NCBI GenBank assembly: GCA_043822705.1
Contig: JBDRBK010000155.1
Coordinates: 1-10,879 of the forward strand
DNA: 10,879 bases
Direction of reading: 5' to 3'
Origin: Fidelibacterota bacterium
GTDB lineage: Bacteria; Fidelibacterota; Marinisomatia; Marinisomatales; TCS56
This document shows positions 2,331 through 10,879 of the stretch, piece after piece; the stretch's first letter is position 1; every line of letters starts with the position of its first letter. Both the position numbers and the translations under genes were made by a program. Under the pieces are notes generated by a model. That model saw only the letters and a program-made list of their open reading frames with translations. It searched no databases and was not told the origin of the DNA.

Positions 2331-2945
2331 ATGGCCTATAAAATCTGGAAAACCCTGGACCAGGTCGAACGCTACGCCAATAAACGTTATCGGACCTGGG
2401 ATCAACGCTGGATCAGCAACCGCGAGCAACGCCTGGTGGCGGACTTGTTCCGCCGCCACGATCTGGGCGACACAATTCTGGATGCGCCGTCCGGCTTCGG
2501 TCGATTTCACGGTTTACTGCGCGCCTTCGGCACGGTATATGCCGCCGATCTGAACCATTTTGCCGTGGAATATTATAATCAGCGGATTTGTTCCGATCCG
2601 CCGGCCGTTGAAGCTGCAGCCGACAACCTGCCGTTTCCGGATGGTAATTTCGACAGCGTTTTCTGTTTCCGGCTGCTCCAGCACATCCACGGTGCCGACG
2701 AACGAATCGCGATCCTGACCGAGCTGGCCCGCGTCAGCCGGCGAGCCGTAGTGGCGTCCATTTATATTGAAACCTGGTTTCACAGCACCCACCGCAAGCT
2801 GGTAAAAATGCCGTCTAAAATCACAATGATCGCTCGGGATCAACTGGCCGCCGAAGCCAAAGCCGCCGGATTGCGCCTGGCGGAGCTGCGGGCGGTCGTA
2901 CCGGGCCTGCACGCCCACCAGATCGGACTATTTTTTAAAGAATAG
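2331..2945 (+). CDS. Class I SAM-dependent methyltransferase (Methyltransf_11-like)
   Basis: Motif I ILDAPSGFGRF, motif II VYAADLN, then A.NLPFPDGNFDSVFCFRLLQHI and ILTELARVS. Starts 31 nt after the AKR stop on the same strand. Confidence 0.9.
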   Translation: MAYKIWKTLDQVERYANKRYRTWDQRWISNREQRLVADLFRRHDLGDTILDAPSGFGRFHGLLRAFGTVYAADLNHFAVEYYNQRICSDPPAVEAAADNLPFPDGNFDSVFCFRLLQHIHGADERIAILTELARVSRRAVVASIYIETWFHSTHRKLVKMPSKITMIARDQLAAEAKAAGLRLAELRAVVPGLHAHQIGLFFKE

Positions 2946-3716
2946 GCGTTTCAACGCCGCCTTGCCACGCCGGTACCGCTGCAGCTTCCGGCGGGCCCGG
3001 CGATAGCCGGCCTCCCAGTCACCAGCCACCGCACTTTCATTGCCATATACAGTAAAAAATCCGGTGACCAGGACCTGATTTTCGTTGTACCGGTGGCCAA
3101 AGTTCAATTTGGCCAGATCGTTCAACCGCTGCCGGACCGTCAAGCGCCGCAACACCCGCGCCCTGTTCAGGTCCACAATGTGAACCTGCCCTACTGAATC
3201 AACCAGAAAATTGCCGGTCGTCAGGTCGCGGTGTAGAATTCCGGCGTTGTGCATCCGCGCCAGACTGAGCGCCAGATCGGCGAATACCGTCAGTACCGCG
3301 GATTCTTCCGGACCGGATTTCAGGAATTTCCGCAGGGTCACATGCGGCCGGATAGCGGCACAGACAAACAGGTTGGTCTGGATCAGTCCCAAACAACGGT
3401 CAGTTAAAACTGCAATCGGGGCAGGCGTGCGGGAACCAGCTTGCCTCAGGGCACGGGCGGTCCGCCAGCTCAAGGCCGCCCGGCTGGGCATCAGTGGTGA
3501 TAAAAAATAATGTATCCGGCTGCGCCAGCCGAACAGCTTGACAACTATGGGACCAAGTGACGATTCAATTTCCGCAACCAGGTTGGGGCGCCGGTCAAAA
3601 ATCTTAACGGCTCGTTTTTCGAGCGCGTTGCGATCGAGCAAGTCTACCGGTAGCAGCGGCGCCGGCCATTGCCCAGACCAATCCCGGTTCATAAAGATGG
3701 ACTTTTTCATTGTCAT
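2928..3716 (-). CDS. Lipopolysaccharide kinase, Kdo/WaaP/InaA family (protein-kinase-like fold)
   Basis: IVVKLF (beta3 Lys), SRAALSW..A..L..AG..TPAP, catalytic loop MHNAGILHRDLTTGNFLV, metal-binding IVDLNRAR, and R..DLAKL. The start is uncertain: GTG 3722, or ATG 3716, 3710 or 3692. Confidence 0.85.
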   Translation of the reverse strand: MTMKKSIFMNRDWSGQWPAPLLPVDLLDRNALEKRAVKIFDRRPNLVAEIESSLGPIVVKLFGWRSRIHYFLSPLMPSRAALSWRTARALRQAGSRTPAPIAVLTDRCLGLIQTNLFVCAAIRPHVTLRKFLKSGPEESAVLTVFADLALSLARMHNAGILHRDLTTGNFLVDSVGQVHIVDLNRARVLRRLTVRQRLNDLAKLNFGHRYNENQVLVTGFFTVYGNESAVAGDWEAGYRRARRKLQRYRRGKAALKRLFFKK

Positions 3717-3888
3717 GATCACTCAATTGTTAAATCAAAGACCACGGCGATATTGAACGCCAGCCTGCTTTGTTTCGGCGCAGGCAATTTAAATCTTTTC
3801 ATTTTGGAGTAGACAGGATATATTTCCCGTAATTATTGATTTCCACCGGATGGCACAACCATTCCCGCAACCTTTCCAAGAGGCGCAA

Positions 3889-4629: not shown

Positions 4630-5853
4630 TTAAAAGAACAGATAGGTGGCCAGCAATCCCCGAACGTTAGTCACACGCTCGTCGGAAGACAGCGTTTTGG
4701 GGGACAGATCCGCTTTATAGGCGCCGGCGTACAGCGCGCTGGTGATTTCCAGCTCAAATGCAAAGCGCAGTTTTCCGGCATTATAGACGGCCCGCGGGCT
4801 CACCCGCCAGAGGCCGGCAATATTGGGAGACCGGGCCGCAGAAAAATCATGAATCACATCCTGCTCCAGATCGCTGCCGATTCCCAGATTGGTCGAATAA
4901 CCGGCAAAAACACCCAGTGACACCGCTCCGCCGGAAGTCATCACGTCAATCCAGGTACTGAGGTTTCTGGTCGGAAAATATTCCACATCAGTAGTAACTG
5001 TGTCAGTCAGTATCGCATAACCGCCCAGCATCAACTGATCGGCCAGGTCGCCACCGTAGATAGTTTTGGCGCGCATGGCCAGTTTATCGCCGACCAGTTT
5101 TCCGTAAGCCGTAAAAACCGTTGAACTGAAAACATCGGCACCGGCCGAATGACGGATGAAACGGAGATGCCCGCCGCCACCGATTAGCGCCTTGGCCGTA
5201 CCCAATTCTCCGAAAAGATGCAAGCCTGGCAGACCGGACTGCTGCTGTTTTGTACGGCCGCTGATTTCCTGAAAGGCGTCGCGCTGCATCGTTGCGGCAC
5301 CAATCACCGTCAGGTTTTCACCAACCTTGGTGGTGTAACGGATCTGCGGATTGCGGGCGAAAGGCTGAATCGGCATCCCGGTATTAAAACTCACCACCTG
5401 GGGAAAAACCGCCGTCGAAAACAGCGGTGACCAGTACTGCCCGATCTGAAGCTGGCTGGCGCCCCAGTTCAATTTCACAAACGAGTGGCGCAGTCGGAAC
5501 TCATTTTCATTGCCATTGGACGCACCAAAAAAGTCCCCCTCGATCAGACCGGTAACCTTGGCGCCCAGGGCATCCGGCGCTGTGATGTCGGCTCGCAGGC
5601 GGGTCTGAAAATTCACCATATTGATGTTGTTGACGGCATTCAAATCATTGCCTTCCGCGTCCTCACTGATACCGGCCGGATACAGCAGGAAATGTCCTTC
5701 GCGGGCGGAAACGACCTGGCGCGTGTCATAAAAACCATCAAACTTTATAAATCCACTAATGCTTGTACTTACACCGGCATCGTCGGCAGCGAGCGGACCG
5801 ACCAGAGCAGCAAGACTAAGGGCGATCAGCATTATCGTTGTGTATCTACGCAT
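4630..5853 (-). CDS. Outer-membrane beta-barrel porin, DcaP-like
   Basis: Signal peptide MRRYTTIMLIALSLAALVGPLAA. Motifs GFIKFDGFYD, QTRL, IEGDFFG, FRLRHSFVKLNW, IGQYWSP and RNPQIRY resemble the DcaP family. Amphipathic beta strands and a C-terminal ATYLFF beta-signal. AAGGA Shine-Dalgarno at 5860-5864. Confidence 0.8.
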   Translation of the reverse strand: MRRYTTIMLIALSLAALVGPLAADDAGVSTSISGFIKFDGFYDTRQVVSAREGHFLLYPAGISEDAEGNDLNAVNNINMVNFQTRLRADITAPDALGAKVTGLIEGDFFGASNGNENEFRLRHSFVKLNWGASQLQIGQYWSPLFSTAVFPQVVSFNTGMPIQPFARNPQIRYTTKVGENLTVIGAATMQRDAFQEISGRTKQQQSGLPGLHLFGELGTAKALIGGGGHLRFIRHSAGADVFSSTVFTAYGKLVGDKLAMRAKTIYGGDLADQLMLGGYAILTDTVTTDVEYFPTRNLSTWIDVMTSGGAVSLGVFAGYSTNLGIGSDLEQDVIHDFSAARSPNIAGLWRVSPRAVYNAGKLRFAFELEITSALYAGAYKADLSPKTLSSDERVTNVRGLLATYLFF

Positions 5854-6006: not shown

Positions 6007-6879
6007 ATGAGCCGGTTGGCAATCATACTGCTGCTGGCTTTCGGACTACTGGCCGTCAGCACCGCCAGCATTTTTGTGCGGCTGGTCCCCGCCCTGCCGG
6101 CGGCGACCATCGCCTTCTGGCGAATGGCCGTAGCCAGTACTGTTTTATGGACCTATACCGGTTTACGTACCCGAGCGGTCATGACCGTATTGAATCGCCG
6201 GCTCTCGGCTCTGGCGGGAATTTTCCTGGGCTTACACTTCGCCTGTTTCTTCGCCGCCCTTCAATATACCAGCATTGCCAACGCCACCCTGTTTTCGGCC
6301 ATGGCCCCGTTTTTCACCGTTTTAGCCGAACGTTTTATTCTGGGGCGTTCCTGGAATTCACGGATAATCATCGGACTGGGAACGGCCCTGGTCGGTGCGG
6401 CTATAATTCAAGGCGGCCGTTTTGATTTCAGTGATCGCAGCACCATCGGCACTCTGTTAGGTCTGGGTGCCGCCGTCCTGATCGCCCTGGTCCTGCTGCT
6501 AACCGAGCGGATTCGGCGCGATACCGGATCGCTGGTGTTCAGTCGCAGTCTGTATCTTGCCGGCGGACTGACAATGCTGGTATTTACCGGCCTGTCCGGA
6601 GGCCGGTTACTGGCCGTTGATCCGTCAGATTATCTCTGGTTGGTCTTGTTAGGAGTTGTACCGACCGTGTTCGGTCATACCAGTTTTTACCATGCCGTAA
6701 AATTCGTGCGGCCTTCGGTGGTGGCGGCCGTGCCGCTGGGTGAGCCGCTGGTAGCTTCCGCCCTGGGCTGGTTTCTGCTGGGCGAGGCCGTGCCCCTGCA
6801 CTCGCTGGTCGGCGGAGTGATTACTCTGGCCGGCCTGTTCCTGTTGATTAATCAGCCGCGGCTTAAAATAGAATCCTAA
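6007..6879 (+). CDS. DMT/EamA family inner-membrane transporter
   Basis: 290 aa with about 10 hydrophobic segments in two EamA repeats. Motifs IAFWRM, ALQYTSIANAT, LGVVPTVFGH and LGEPLVAS.LGW.LLGE. Confidence 0.93.
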   Translation: MSRLAIILLLAFGLLAVSTASIFVRLVPALPAATIAFWRMAVASTVLWTYTGLRTRAVMTVLNRRLSALAGIFLGLHFACFFAALQYTSIANATLFSAMAPFFTVLAERFILGRSWNSRIIIGLGTALVGAAIIQGGRFDFSDRSTIGTLLGLGAAVLIALVLLLTERIRRDTGSLVFSRSLYLAGGLTMLVFTGLSGGRLLAVDPSDYLWLVLLGVVPTVFGHTSFYHAVKFVRPSVVAAVPLGEPLVASALGWFLLGEAVPLHSLVGGVITLAGLFLLINQPRLKIES

Positions 6880-7598
6880 AATTTATAACCAGTATGGCGG
6901 TCGTTCTCTTCCCGGAAACGCCAAACCAGGTCATGGTTTTTCACAAAGCCACGTTGTTCTTCCGGTAGCAAGGCACCGATCCGGCACATTATTTCCAGGC
7001 CGATCTCTTCCAATAACTGCTGCCGGGATTTACCGTCGGCTTCCTGCTCAAACGGACCAAAGGCACGACCGATACGAACAGTGACGGTCTGACGGACACC
7101 GCGGAATAAATTTTTCCAGAGATTATTATGACCGGTGACGCTGACCGGCAAAATCGGCACGTTGGTAGCCAGCGATAAATAGGCGGCGCCTTCCTTGGCT
7201 GGTCGCAGTTCGGTAGCCAGGGAAGTAGCTTCCGGAAAAATGCCCAGAATTTCGTTTTTCCGCAGTACCTGTAATGAAGTTTTAATAGTAGAGGGCGCCA
7301 ACTTGCTGCGGTTGGTGGGAATGAAACCGTAAATCCACGGCGCCCAGAACATGTCGTTGCCGACAACCTGATCGCTGGCCATCAGAAAATTAATCGGCCG
7401 CTGAGTGGCGTATATTATGAATATCGGGTCCAGCACACTGAAATGATTAGCTGCGATGATGTACGGGCCACGGTCCGGAATGAACTGCCGGCCGTATACT
7501 TTCACCCGGGAAGCCAGACTTAGCATGAACAGTGTAAAATAGCCGGACAGATAGCGAATGATCAGCGGACGTGGTCGGTATTTATTTAAATCGCGCAT
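6876..7598 (-). CDS. plsC: 1-acyl-sn-glycerol-3-phosphate acyltransferase-like (lysophospholipid acyltransferase family)
   Basis: Catalytic HX4D motif ANHFSVLDP, then FIPTNR, LGIFPEAT (FPEGT-like) and VPILPV. The family is clear; the exact acceptor is not. Confidence 0.85.
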   Translation of the reverse strand: MRDLNKYRPRPLIIRYLSGYFTLFMLSLASRVKVYGRQFIPDRGPYIIAANHFSVLDPIFIIYATQRPINFLMASDQVVGNDMFWAPWIYGFIPTNRSKLAPSTIKTSLQVLRKNEILGIFPEATSLATELRPAKEGAAYLSLATNVPILPVSVTGHNNLWKNLFRGVRQTVTVRIGRAFGPFEQEADGKSRQQLLEEIGLEIMCRIGALLPEEQRGFVKNHDLVWRFREENDRHTGYKF

Positions 7599-7755
7599 CT
7601 GTCAAATTAGTTTTATGTTGTTTTGCCTGGTTTATAGGCCTGTCGGCCGGGATATTTAATATCAACAGCGGTAAAATTACGAAGTATTTGATTTCCATCA
7701 ACGATTCTAAAAATCATTTGTTTATGATCGTCTGTCGCAAGAACTTTCCCCTATC

Positions 7756-9090
7756 ATGAAACCATCCTCCACCAAACAGAAAGCACTGGATCGCTTTCAC
7801 CGTCATGTATCCAGCGCCAAAACCGATTTCTTTCTGAAATACGGAATGAACTTCGTAATGGGAAAACGCCAGGGTCCCTATCTGTATGATATCGACGGTG
7901 AAAAGCGATTATTCAACCTGCACTGCAACGGCGGTGTCTTTAATCTCGGTCATCGCCACGAGGAATTGATCGAATTACTGCGGACCAGTCTGGCGGAAGT
8001 TGATATCGGAAACCACCATTTACTCAGCCGCGAGCGCGCCGAACTGGCGACCATGCTGGCCGACCTGATGCCCGGGGATCTGACTTACACAGTTTTCGGG
8101 GTAGGTGGCGGCGAAGCCGTTGATCTGGCGATTAAAGTCGCCCGCGGCTATACCGGCCGCGAGGATATACTTTCCGCTCGGGGCGGTTATCACGGACATA
8201 CCGGTCTGGCGCTGGCGGCCGGCGATGAAAAATACCGCCGTCCGTTTGGTCCCCAGCCACCCGGTTTCCGGCAGATCGATTTCAACAATACTTCCGCCCT
8301 GCAAGACGCCCTGGATGAAAACACGGCCGCAGTGATCCTGGAAACAGTACCTGCGACGCTGGGGATGGTCATTCCGGATGCGGACTATCTTCCTACCGTA
8401 CGTGAACTTTGCGACCGCAACGGCACCCTGCTGATCCTGGATGAAGTTCAGACCGGCCTGGGCCGCACCGGACGGCTGTGGGGATTTGAACATTATGATA
8501 TCGTGCCGGATATAGTAGTTCTGGGTAAGGGGTTGTCCGGTGGTCTGTACCCGATATCCGCAACTGTGCTGCGCGAACCGCTGGAAAAGGTTTTTCATCC
8601 CGATCCATTTATTCACATCTCCACTTTTGGCGGCGCCGAAATCGGTTGCCGCATCGCCCGGCGGGTTTTGGAAATATCTTCTTCGCCCGATTTTCTTGCC
8701 CATGTGGTCCGGCTGGCAGAACAGTTTCGCCTGGGGGTGGACCGGCTGCGGCCGAAACACCGAAAATTTTTGGTCGGCCTGCGACAGCTTGGTTTAATGA
8801 TGGGACTGGAATTAAAGGATGACCTCTGTGGCCCGATCTTGACCAAGGCGGCCTATGATCATGATTTACTATTGATATACGCCGGTAACGATACTTCGAT
8901 CAGTCAGTTTCTGCCGCCCCTGACAATTTCACCGCCCCAGGCCGAGATGGCGATCAGCCAGCTGGACGGCGCCCTGGCGGCCGCCCGGCGGCTGCGCCTG
9001 CTGTACGCCGGCAAGGAACGCCTGCAGCAATTCGGGTCACAAATTACCTCCCGCTTAAAAACCAGATCCGGGAAAAATAAAAATGAATAA
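7756..9090 (+). CDS. Class III PLP-dependent aminotransferase-family enzyme, substrate unknown
   Basis: G.YLYDIDG, FNLGH, GGGEAV, YHGHT, LILDEVQTGLGRTG (D229), PDIVVLGKGLSGG (Schiff-base K258), STFGG and PPL. Overall similar to putrescine/acetylornithine aminotransferases, but with altered specificity residues. Confidence 0.92.
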   Translation: MKPSSTKQKALDRFHRHVSSAKTDFFLKYGMNFVMGKRQGPYLYDIDGEKRLFNLHCNGGVFNLGHRHEELIELLRTSLAEVDIGNHHLLSRERAELATMLADLMPGDLTYTVFGVGGGEAVDLAIKVARGYTGREDILSARGGYHGHTGLALAAGDEKYRRPFGPQPPGFRQIDFNNTSALQDALDENTAAVILETVPATLGMVIPDADYLPTVRELCDRNGTLLILDEVQTGLGRTGRLWGFEHYDIVPDIVVLGKGLSGGLYPISATVLREPLEKVFHPDPFIHISTFGGAEIGCRIARRVLEISSSPDFLAHVVRLAEQFRLGVDRLRPKHRKFLVGLRQLGLMMGLELKDDLCGPILTKAAYDHDLLLIYAGNDTSISQFLPPLTISPPQAEMAISQLDGALAAARRLRLLYAGKERLQQFGSQITSRLKTRSGKNKNE

Positions 9091-10009
9091 TGATCCCAAT
9101 TTTCTGGAACGATTCGAGCATGGTTTAAATCCTGCCGATCTGAATGCATCCAAAATTCCGGGGACTGTCCTGGGTTATGGCGAAATCTCCACTATTTTCC
9201 AGATCGGCAACGACGATCGACACGCCTACAAACGCATGCCATTATTCAAAACACTGGCCGCCGCCGAGGAATATGCCACCAACTACCGTCATTACTGTGA
9301 TTATCTGGGCGGCGCCGGTCTTACCCTCCCCGCTGACGATCTGCAGCTTGTCGCCCTGCCAAAGCGACCGGTGGTGCTCTATATCGTCCAGAAACAATTT
9401 CCGTCGTCTTGGTTCGCGCATCGGCTGATACATGTGTTGGACGCAGATGCCAATAAAATTCTACTGACGCGGATTGCACAGGAAACGATAAAAATCCGGA
9501 CCTATAACAAAACGCAGGCCCCGGCACTGGAAATCGCTCTTGACGCCCAGATATCCAACTGGGTGTTCGAAAATGGTGATCCGGTTGGTGGAACGCTGTA
9601 TTATATCGATACCTCCACGCCGCAATACCAATTGGATGGTGTCGAACAATTAAATCCGGAATTAATCCTGCAAAGCGCACCGTCGTTTCTGCGCTGGATC
9701 ATCAGCAAACTGTTTTTAAAGGACGTAATGAACCGCTATTACGACCAGCGCCAGATTATGATCGATCTGGCTGCCAATCTTTACAAGGAACAACTGCCGC
9801 AGTTGATTCCGCTGGCAATCGAAATCATCAATTCCCTGCTCGGCGATGACAGTACGGAAATCACCGCTGAAATTGTCAACGGCTATTACCGCGAAGATAA
9901 ATTTATCTGGGCGTTATTTCTGACGGCCCGCAAAATCGATCGCTGGCTGACGACCACACTGTTCCGACAGCGCTATGAATTCATTCTTCCGGGAAGGATT
10001 CAACGCTGA
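9083..10009 (+). CDS. Uncharacterised protein with protein-kinase-like motifs (recalled as DUF6206-like; not verified)
   Basis: 308-aa ORF overlapping the upstream stop by 8 nt (ATGAATAA). Motifs LGYGEISTIF, AYK50, L..AG..LP, LYIVQ, D154AQISN159 and YID176. Confidence is high that it is a CDS and moderate for the kinase-like function. Confidence 0.75.
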   Translation: MNNDPNFLERFEHGLNPADLNASKIPGTVLGYGEISTIFQIGNDDRHAYKRMPLFKTLAAAEEYATNYRHYCDYLGGAGLTLPADDLQLVALPKRPVVLYIVQKQFPSSWFAHRLIHVLDADANKILLTRIAQETIKIRTYNKTQAPALEIALDAQISNWVFENGDPVGGTLYYIDTSTPQYQLDGVEQLNPELILQSAPSFLRWIISKLFLKDVMNRYYDQRQIMIDLAANLYKEQLPQLIPLAIEIINSLLGDDSTEITAEIVNGYYREDKFIWALFLTARKIDRWLTTTLFRQRYEFILPGRIQR

Positions 10010-10010
10010 T

Positions 10011-10879
10011 ATGTGCGATACTTTTGTCGTCCTGCCATCCGCTTCCGCCAACGTTTCAACGCTATTCGGTAAAAACAGCGATCGTGAACCGAACGAGGCG
10101 CAGATCGTGGAATACCATCCCGCCGCCGACCACCCGGCGGATTCGCGCCTGAAATGTTCCTACCTGGAAATTCCCCAGGTCCGCCACACGTGTGCCGTGC
10201 TCTTGAGCCGGCCTTTCTGGATGTGGGGCGCGGAAATCGGCGCCAATGAGCATGGCGTCGTCATCGGTAACGAGGCCGTGTGGAGTAAAATGCCGTTGGA
10301 AAAGGTCGGACGCCTGACCGGTATGGATTTGTTGCGACTGGCCCTCGAACGCTCGACCACAGCCGAAACCGCCCTGGAAAAGATCACCGAGTTACTGGCG
10401 GAATTCGGGCAAGGCGGCAATTGCGGCTATACCGCCCCAATGGTTTATCACAACAGTTATATTATCGCCGATCCCGCCCAAGCCTGGGTCCTGGAAACCG
10501 CCGGCCAGCTCTGGGTGGCCCGGCGAATCAACAACTCTTACTCAATCAGCAATGGCTTGACTATCGGTGAAGAATTCGATCTTAGTCACTCAGACTTGAT
10601 CACGGTTGCTCGTCGAAAAGGTTGGTTGAAAAAAGGTGCTGCTTTTGATTTTGCTGAGTGTTATGCCGATTGGTTTTATACTACATTTTCCGGCTGCCGT
10701 TCGCGACAGCGGCGATCCCGTCACTTGGTAGCACATCAGAAACCTCTCGACCTTCCCGCCGCCATGGCCATTCTGCGCGATCATGGAGACGAAGACTATC
10801 GTCCTGACAGCCATTTTCTGATCAATCGGATTTGTGCCCATTCCGCCAACCCGGTGGCACGGCACTCCGCCCAATCCAC
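10011..10879 (+). CDS. Secernin-like C69 family peptidase / Ntn-hydrolase; continues past the right edge
   Basis: Not in the ORF track; open from ATG 10011 to the window end. MCDTFVVLP...LFGKNSDREPNEAQ...LSRPFWMWGAEIGANEHGVVIGNEAV...GMDLLRLALERS..A..A...GQGGNC...YHNSYIIADP..AWVLETAG..W. Cys2 is the expected N-terminal nucleophile. Starts 1 nt after the upstream stop. Confidence 0.93.
   Translation, partial: MCDTFVVLPSASANVSTLFGKNSDREPNEAQIVEYHPAADHPADSRLKCSYLEIPQVRHTCAVLLSRPFWMWGAEIGANEHGVVIGNEAVWSKMPLEKVGRLTGMDLLRLALERSTTAETALEKITELLAEFGQGGNCGYTAPMVYHNSYIIADPAQAWVLETAGQLWVARRINNSYSISNGLTIGEEFDLSHSDLITVARRKGWLKKGAAFDFAECYADWFYTTFSGCRSRQRRSRHLVAHQKPLDLPAAMAILRDHGDEDYRPDSHFLINRICAHSANPVARHSAQS

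Follow-up and report, generated by a model that had tools for sequence, protein, structure and literature searches.

Amino alcohols are handled in several described pathways by a kinase of the protein-kinase-like (PKL) fold followed by a class III ammonia-lyase dependent on pyridoxal phosphate (PLP), as in hydroxylysine kinase with PHYKPL, ethanolamine kinase with ETNPPL, and PbfA. A comparable order of steps, deacylation, phosphorylation and then a lyase reaction, is followed by ceramidase, sphingosine kinase and sphingosine-1-phosphate lyase. A third described system is the RMM or aminoacetone-utilisation (AAU) microcompartment of Mycobacterium and Rhodococcus (PMC4207490, PMC8156839, PMC6620236), for which a route from aminoacetone to propionyl-CoA has been proposed (PMC8156839); such a route requires the net loss of the hydroxyl group. 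Here we describe a locus from a Fidelibacterota bacterium in which three consecutive genes encode a class III PLP enzyme, a kinase-fold protein of the family DUF6206 and a secernin-like N-terminal nucleophile (Ntn) hydrolase of the family C69. The window analysed is the entire contig (JBDRBK010000155.1, here C155 of genome G000; 10,879 nucleotides (nt)), and relatives of the same family carry the label Candidatus Neomarinimicrobiota / Fidelibacterota.

The three genes are real, co-inherited and sometimes fused, and the module is spread over many bacteria and some archaea. Its invariant core is the PLP enzyme together with the kinase, and the C69 hydrolase is optional. The reading that we favour, with a probability of roughly 0.6, is that the module hydrolyses an amide, phosphorylates the hydroxyl of a vicinal amino alcohol and removes the phosphate by phospho-lyase elimination; it would then work like a kinase and phospho-lyase pathway, yet belong to none of the characterised families.

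Linkage and fusion of the three genes

To collect homologous loci, we ran four genome scans with DUF6206 and took at most the best 80 matches of each, kin being over-represented among them; three sub-alignments were used because the 99-row alignment was too diverse. The linkage set comprised 263 loci after removal of 4 duplicate contigs and 20 short loci. These best matches come from more than ten bacterial phyla, Asgard archaea and Archaeoglobi; cultured carriers include Robertkochia flava (L025) and Nocardioides taihuensis (L210), the latter with the PLP–kinase pair. A PLP enzyme lies within 1.5 kb of DUF6206 in 202 of the 263 loci, and the 61 loci without one include 44 actinomycete biosynthetic clusters and 9 near a contig edge, two sets that may overlap. 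Where the PLP enzyme did not adjoin DUF6206, it was present elsewhere in the genome in all five Asgard genomes and in four of the five other genomes tested. A C69 gene was found within 6 kb in 79 of the 202 paired loci, on the opposite strand in 14 of them. Conservation across phyla, which the original prediction from this DNA had put forward as a check, is supported, with the PLP–kinase pair as the constant part and C69 as an optional member. With the PLP alignment as the query of a reverse search, DUF6206 was present in 38 of 80 metagenome loci, many of the others being short, of microcompartment type or of a type that keeps the Glu/Arg pair discussed below.

Co-occurrence gave a similar picture. 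Among 41 related genomes, 22 carry DUF6206, and of these 20 have the PLP enzyme, 19 have C69 and 18 have all three; where DUF6206 is absent, neither the PLP enzyme nor C69 was found (0 of 19 for each, in genomes that are kin and not independent). The possibility that the genes are not co-conserved in other genomes, raised with the original prediction, is not borne out by either the linkage or this co-occurrence.

The partners also meet in single polypeptides. We found a kinase–PLP fusion (P0188; 751 amino acids (aa), 5 members), a C69–PLP fusion (P0193; 811–815 aa, full-length in 7 of 8 members) with a second cluster (P0195), two proteins in which an NAD-dependent oxidoreductase domain is joined to the PLP enzyme, and triple fusions (P0194 and P0196) in which an oxidoreductase-like N-terminal domain, unnamed by Pfam, precedes the PLP enzyme and the kinase. 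In-frame joins in loci L061 and L028 resemble frameshifts and were not counted as fusions; a join in L213, present in one record only, is a possible further case. As a separate observation, P0190, P0191, P0192, P0194 and P0196 fuse the PLP enzyme to a reductive-aminase-like NAD-binding domain or to an AMP-binding ligase, and the PLP signature is changed in the two triple fusions.

Beyond these three genes the operon has no conserved member that we could find: the 162 flanking open reading frames (ORFs) that run in the same direction fell into 113 groups, the biggest of which covered 8 loci, and 50 chosen ORFs were scanned. In related Actinomycetota (L142, L156, L176, L203 and L207), a glycyl-radical enzyme is encoded divergently from DUF6206; the copy in L207 is 990 aa long and falls under all NCBIfam cut-offs.

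The PLP enzyme and its kinase partners

The PLP enzyme matches PF00202 at 258 bits (cut-off 30.5), and it is as atypical as had been predicted. Among solved structures, E. coli PatA is its nearest relative (TM 0.88, ~32% identity), and structure comparison with PatA and PigE gave TM scores of 0.86–0.89. All NCBIfam cut-offs shown were missed, including those for ArgD and those for PatA (255.7 versus 612 and 221 versus 658.65). Over 195 aligned rows the residues of the PLP site are kept (Lys258 in 99%, Asp229 in 100% and Gln232 in 100%, with Thr290 also kept). In the same rows, mapped to PatA numbering, PatA Glu243 corresponds to Thr201 in 100% and Arg426 to Gln384 in 98%. PatA Phe91, Gln119 and Leu419 are replaced as well, and Asn58, His87, His88 and Pro199 are family-specific and near-invariant; the two histidines may help to bind phosphate. 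PMC4244111 describes the Glu/Arg pair as strictly conserved in the set of class III transaminases compared there, and as required for the 2-oxoglutarate half-reaction. The alignments show an enzyme without the Glu/Arg switch of transaminases, for which lyase chemistry is a prediction.

Two transaminase explanations have to be weighed at this point. The PLP enzyme could be an ordinary putrescine or acetylornithine transaminase that shares an operon with two unrelated genes by chance, an outcome that the original prediction had named as one that would overturn it. PatA is indeed the best match in both sequence and structure, and the genome holds just one further class III match to the PLP enzyme, but the missed cut-offs, the replacement of all five PatA residues listed above and the recurrence of linkage and fusions across phyla make this explanation hardly credible. 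Alternatively, the kinase could work with a transaminase that runs, in either direction, between an amino-alcohol phosphate and the corresponding keto or aldehyde phosphate, in the manner of RtxA and serinol phosphate, while C69 attaches an acyl group or takes it off. This would agree with PatA and PigE being the closest structures and with the reading of the microcompartment member as an aminotransferase (PMC6620236), and a C3 carbonyl product would fit the glycerate kinases, of two unrelated families, that adjoin the module in L186, L208, L252, L358 and L288. However, Gln takes the place of the Arg that would bind the carboxylate of the keto acid in 98% of the family, the partner Glu is Thr throughout, and a sister clade that retains Glu/Arg is found without a kinase. 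We therefore regard transamination, and with it the RtxA-like biosynthetic direction, as improbable. As an observation in its own right, glycerate kinases beside the module hint at a C3 product or acyl group.

A sub-clade of the PLP family with ~40% identity and the same signature belongs to clusters that also encode shell proteins, an acylating aldehyde dehydrogenase, a permease, a short-chain dehydrogenase/reductase (SDR) matching 6CI8/6CI9, and an APH kinase that is the orthologue of 6EF6 (E 2.9e-155). These clusters are the RMM/AAU microcompartment. We placed this sub-clade in a FastTree phylogeny of 85 hand-picked rows, with SH-like support and with group labels set partly by the signature. 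The 11 microcompartment sequences form one branch (support 100) within a 72-row clade (support 99) whose members are mostly partnered by DUF6206, which indicates that the PLP enzyme of the window shares ancestry with the microcompartment enzyme. Nine sister sequences that keep Glu/Arg fall outside the 72-row clade and have neither DUF6206 nor an APH kinase nearby, several of their loci being short; they serve as a control. The microcompartment branch nests in the DUF6206-partnered clade, and two PLP–APH fusions adjoin C69 genes (L335 and L358), so that one PLP clade is served by two unrelated kinases, one of them a solved amino-alcohol kinase. Mallette and Kimber reportedly proposed in 2018 that the microcompartment enzyme, AutA, is a phospho-lyase. 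Glu/Arg-keeping, PatA-like sister sequences in L341, L342, L361, L381 and L382 are accompanied by an amino-acid permease, in L341 also by a small SCP2-like gene, and are probably true amine transaminases.

The surroundings of the two kinds of pair differ. An APC permease lies within 3 kb of 6 of 13 APH-paired loci versus 1 of 237 DUF6206-paired loci, shell proteins were found in none of the 237, and genome G000 has no match to the APH kinase. An acylating aldehyde dehydrogenase adjoins 8 of the 13 APH-paired loci, which bears on a further alternative, namely that the PLP enzyme performs some other non-transaminase reaction on a phosphorylated substrate, such as racemisation, epimerisation or the retro-aldol type of cleavage known from sphingosine-1-phosphate lyase. 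There are racemases and epimerases in class III, and the loss of Glu/Arg speaks against transamination while naming no replacement chemistry. A dehydrogenase of this kind, however, fits an aldehyde, the direct product of elimination, and the racemases and epimerases among the class III matches in the PDB rank far below PatA, so that we consider these reactions quite unlikely.

The second gene had been called a cryptic kinase, and its product does have a protein-kinase-like fold with an intact-looking active site. It matches PF19709 at 72.7 bits (cut-off 30.4), and its AF2 model (pLDDT 96) is bilobal, with the PKL fold. We aligned 99 full-length rows, the query included, hand-chosen from 150 listed homologues. 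Gly33, Lys50, Gln103, Asp154, Asn159, Asp176 and Pro200 are invariant, and from motif spacing and strand positions they supply a Gly loop (Gly33), a beta-3 Lys (Lys50), a catalytic Asp (Asp154) and Mg-binding residues (Asn159 and Asp176). The HxD motif reads small-Leu-Asp and has no His; helix 58–77, the candidate helix C, contains no invariant Glu, and Glu34 of the Gly loop is more than 90% conserved. There was no match to PF01636 (APH), no detectable profile similarity to the microcompartment aminopropanol-kinase APH group (hhalign probability 0.2%), nothing significant in a sequence search against solved structures and no mention of DUF6206 in the literature searched, which covers few subscription journals. 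One DUF6206 match (L043; G010:C58:14940-15833) contains two in-frame TGA codons in a genome without a match to the PLP enzyme or C69, and is possibly a decaying copy.

Structure comparison ranked different kinases close together. Foldseek placed eukaryotic Ser/Thr protein kinases first, at TM ~0.4. VIA placed amicoumacin kinase at the top (Z 11.3, rmsd 5.1, 226 aligned), followed by Bud32 (Z 11.2), APH(2'') (10.9), the aminopropanol kinase 6EF6 (10.5) and Rv3168, all tied within 1 Z at an rmsd of ~5. The PKL fold alone does not tell a small-molecule substrate from a protein substrate. DUF6206 might act on proteins and serve to regulate the PLP enzyme or the hydrolase; the Foldseek ranking, the tie of Bud32 and RIO kinases with small-molecule kinases, and a Ser/Thr kinase label given in passing to sco5884, the prodiginine-cluster gene discussed below, in one preprint (10.64898/2025.12.22.695978) would be in keeping with this. 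Against it, an aminopropanol-kinase orthologue replaces DUF6206 within the same PLP clade, and DUF6206 also occurs in biosynthetic clusters of genomes that lack that clade (0 of 5). We find a regulatory protein kinase very unlikely.

The C69 hydrolase and the layout of the locus

The third protein matches PF03577 at 40.7 bits (cut-off 23), and a Cys2 nucleophile is present in 100% of 89 aligned rows, in agreement with the secernin-like Ntn hydrolase with an N-terminal Cys that had been predicted. A mechanical ORF caller put the start of the gene at 9975; because the start MCDT prevails, opening 76 of the 89 rows, and Cys2 is invariant, we take 10011 as the start. The truncated gene reaches 30.7 of the 250 bits set for the C69 dipeptidase equivalog NF033678, a full-length copy gave no match to that model at E 1e-40, and a sequence search of the protein against solved structures returned nothing significant. 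In the Atlas, a secernin-3 cluster is found among its neighbours, at 0.97. Secernin substrates are called elusive in PMC9140057, which places acid ceramidase and NAAA in one Cys-Ntn PVA subfamily with C69. In related Dehalococcoidia loci without C69 (L161–L164, L170, L174, L177, L183, L184 and L199), a penicillin-acylase-family Ntn hydrolase is encoded upstream of the pair, and other amidases adjoin the pair in single loci (L195, L228, L256, L274 and L311).

The predicted arrangement of three co-oriented genes with an 8-nt overlap and a 1-nt gap was confirmed by the ORFs and by the start and stop codons (Table 1). The overlap is made by an ATG at 9083 and a TAA at 9088–9090, and the gap by a TGA at 10007–10009, a single base and the ATG at 10011. 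This spacing points to co-transcription; no sigma-70 consensus was found in the intergenic region upstream (7599..7755). A second copy of the region (C10:1-4208 versus window 6672-10879) is of equal length and 91.6% identical over 4208 nt. It carries the complete C69 gene (438 aa) followed by a gene on the opposite strand, so that the unit there consists of three genes. Most of the differences between the copies affect the third base of a codon (PLP gene, 81 of 99; DUF6206, 55 of 82; C69, 46 of 73), as expected for genes under selection. The reported contamination of G000 is 6%, and the second copy may come from a co-binned relative rather than from a duplication.

Table 1. Coordinates of the module and adjoining features in the window
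Feature	Position	Strand	Family or remark
Class III (fold type I) PLP enzyme, 444 aa; predicted amino-alcohol O-phosphate phospho-lyase	7756..9090	+	PF00202
DUF6206 kinase-fold protein, 308 aa; predicted amino-alcohol O-kinase	9083..10009	+	PF19709
C69 / secernin-like Ntn hydrolase, cut at contig end; predicted amidase freeing the amino alcohol	10011..10879	+	PF03577
8-nt overlap, PLP-enzyme stop and kinase start	9083..9090	+	Identical in the C10 copy
1-nt gap, kinase stop and C69 start	10010	+	Identical in the C10 copy
AT-rich intergenic stretch separating the operon from the divergent acyltransferase gene; presumed to hold the promoter	7599..7755	.	
Divergent PlsC-like acyltransferase (PF01553)	6876..7598	-	Not a conserved operon member

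The PlsC-like acyltransferase was rejected as a general partner of the module, as it lies beside the operon in close relatives only. It converges, with a 4-nt overlap, with an EamA transporter gene (6007-6879, + strand) that is likewise kept beside the operon in close relatives only. Further left, a class I methyltransferase gene (2331-2945, + strand) and a Kdo/WaaP-family kinase gene (2928-3722, - strand) converge with overlapping ends, a pair that recurs in L002 and L003, and positions 4630-5853 (- strand) encode a DcaP-like outer-membrane protein barely above the Pfam cut-off. Positions 1-141 are identical to the final 141 bases of contig C154, into which the sequence runs on leftwards.

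The proposed reactions and their substrate

In the sequence of reactions that we propose, C69, with Cys2 exposed by removal of Met, would hydrolyse an N-acyl amide to a free amine. DUF6206 and ATP would then phosphorylate the hydroxyl adjacent to the amine-bearing carbon. The PLP enzyme would form a Schiff base with the product, Lys258 would take the alpha proton, phosphate would be eliminated, and hydrolysis of the resulting enamine would yield an aldehyde or ketone and ammonia. The route would be cytoplasmic and would remove a vicinal amino alcohol; in some lineages a reductase may make the amino alcohol from an aminoketone instead of the amide route. We infer how the steps are ordered, that the last one is a lyase reaction, and what the substrate is, from the families, their residues and their contexts. 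Hydrolysis, phosphorylation and elimination had also been the catabolic version of the original prediction, and it remains the best reading here, with its transaminating or biosynthetic version less probable for the reasons given above. The proposed chemistry is supported by the other contexts of DUF6206, which are clusters making aminoketones with an oxoamine synthase.

Several observations weigh against it. C69 is missing from most paired loci. The PLP clade is distant from the characterised phospho-lyases, with the PbfA model reaching 194 bits against a cut-off of 525, ETNPPL ranking low (E 2e-36) and 6TOR standing far down the list of PDB matches. Foldseek, as noted, ranks eukaryotic protein kinases first for the kinase model. 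An acylating aldehyde dehydrogenase, of which only the microcompartment type was queried, was found within 3 kb of none of the 237 DUF6206-paired loci, so that the loci do not reveal what becomes of the product. For the microcompartment enzyme, finally, PMC6620236 found no characterised orthologue and proposed transamination.

The biosynthetic contexts are found in about 40 actinomycete loci in which DUF6206 lies inside prodiginine-type clusters. The L056 cluster runs FabH-like, FabF-like, DUF6041, DUF6206 (7908-8867), phosphopantetheinyl transferase, nitroreductase-like, regulator, acyl-CoA dehydrogenase and polyketide synthase (PKS), and by this synteny DUF6206 fills the SCO5884 slot of red-type clusters. 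SCO5884 is also called RedT, and a hydroxypyrroline is an intermediate of the route. Since DUF6206 occupies the slot, the SCO5884 gene would encode a kinase-fold protein with intact catalytic residues; the role of SCO5884/85 is given as unknown in PMC7581861. Five genomes with such biosynthetic clusters lack the PLP clade, with a best score of 297 bits versus at least 420 for members. In four further loci (L064, L067, L068 and L071, from Amycolatopsis, Umezawaea and Lentzea), DUF6206 follows an adenylation-PKS-oxoamine-synthase gene and one or two reductases, and in L067 and L068 the best model of the reductase is 3-ketodihydrosphingosine reductase, below cut-off (251–258 versus 400). PKS and oxoamine synthase have been shown to make sphinganines, with a KDSR-like SDR proposed for the reduction (PMC12134224). 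A long-chain vicinal amino alcohol would be the expected intermediate in both settings, and the four clusters are candidate producers of a phosphorylated sphingoid-like compound. The reductases of these loci are KdsR-like or OleD-like, and a thioesterase is sometimes present.

Given the proposed chemistry, a small substrate (aminopropanol, ethanolamine, hydroxylysine or an aminodiol) has slightly better than even odds, and a long-chain base, sphinganine-like or another 1-amino-2-alkanol, is a real contender that falls somewhat short of even. A long-chain, sphingoid-like substrate is suggested by the reductases nearby and by the scarcity of amine permeases, and the subfamily that C69 shares with acid ceramidase and NAAA speaks for a lipid as well: KdsR-like SDRs flank 4 of the 237 paired loci, and a TSC10-like SDR (8JAT, E 1.1e-28, the second-ranked match) flanks 3 more. 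G000 itself carries an operon of a serine palmitoyltransferase (SPT)-like and a KdsR-like gene on contig C9 (L385:8418-10560; 502 versus 640 and 323 versus 400 bits), the former with SPT as its best PDB match (E 3e-120). Other observations speak against a long chain. The reductase neighbours are rare and sub-threshold, the glycerate kinases point to C3 chemistry, and C69 accompanies aminopropanol-kinase-like fusions too. By its hydrophobic moments, DUF6206 could not be told apart from soluble APH kinases; a basic C-terminal helix with a mean net charge of +5 was the sole feature to stand out. Among 151 genomes of the phylum, DUF6206 occurs in 40, SPT in 60 and both in 11 versus 15.9 expected, and a clear SPT orthologue was found in 4 of 20 diverse, distant module-bearing genomes. 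DUF6206 is present in 12 of the 14 SPT-positive genomes among the 41 relatives, but a tie between the module and sphingolipid synthesis in the same cell was rejected as lineage-driven, as it fails in the 151 and the 20 genomes; SPT would not be needed if the module breaks down lipids from outside. The occurrence of SPT-like genes in 60 of the 151 genomes suggests widespread sphingolipid synthesis in this phylum.

The most far-reaching form of the long-chain reading is an unlikely one. The trio would be a prokaryotic route for the breakdown of ceramide-like lipids, and none of its three families would be related to the eukaryotic ones: the ceramidase would be secernin-like, the long-chain-base kinase would be DUF6206, and the lyase, derived from PatA, would release phosphate and ammonia with the chain left uncut. 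The route would be spread in sediment and marine bacteria, with the kinase–lyase core reaching Asgard archaea and Archaeoglobi. DUF6206 would act at the SCO5884 step of prodiginine synthesis by aromatising an alkyl-hydroxypyrroline through phosphorylation and elimination, and human secernins would gain a substrate lead.

Comparison with known systems

If the proposed reactions are right, three uncharacterised families would gain a function: DUF6206, a wide class III PLP clade routinely annotated as transaminase, and the bacterial secernin-like hydrolases. Phospho-lyase chemistry would have evolved a separate time, out of an ancestor resembling putrescine transaminase, and kinases of unrelated families would have replaced each other as the partner; the aminoacetone-microcompartment enzyme would be an offshoot of an older, non-compartmented module. 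The prodiginine link makes a role-less gene of a classic antibiotic pathway testable in a model organism.

The original prediction knew of no characterised operon of this composition. This holds for the trio in the literature searched; the logic is known, in that the same PLP clade is paired with an aminopropanol kinase in the aminoacetone microcompartment. AutA of that system belongs to the same PLP family (~40% identical, with 15 of 16 signature positions, the 16th of which varies in the family), and its partner is also a PKL-fold kinase, acting there on an amino alcohol (6EF6, an (S)-1-amino-2-propanol kinase). The module differs in that its kinase is DUF6206, with no profile similarity detected to that APH group, in that the paired loci lack shell proteins and the acylating aldehyde dehydrogenase and all but one lack the permease, and in that an amidase is the usual third gene.

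PHYKPL, ETNPPL and PbfA share the proposed chemistry, whereas the PLP enzyme here lies on another class III branch, nearest PatA and PigE, and its lyase activity would therefore have arisen separately. To PatA (YgjG) and PigE it is similar in fold and cofactor site, with the Phe327 position kept; it differs from PatA in the changes Glu243 to Thr, Arg426 to Gln, Phe91 to Gly, Gln119 to His and Leu419 to Gly/Asn. In red-type clusters, DUF6206 stands where the undecylprodigiosin (red) cluster has SCO5884, with a DUF6041 membrane gene on one side and redU, for the phosphopantetheinyl transferase, on the other; the setting is biosynthetic and there is no PLP partner of this clade. With secernins (SCRN1-3) and C69 dipeptidases the hydrolase shares PF03577 and the proximity to the secernin-3 cluster, and it differs from the dipeptidases in missing their equivalog. 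Finally, ceramidase, sphingosine kinase and sphingosine-1-phosphate lyase offer the same order of steps, and acid ceramidase and NAAA the same subfamily as C69, whereas all three proteins here are of other families: the kinase has no DAGK domain and the predicted lyase is of class III and not of the decarboxylase type.

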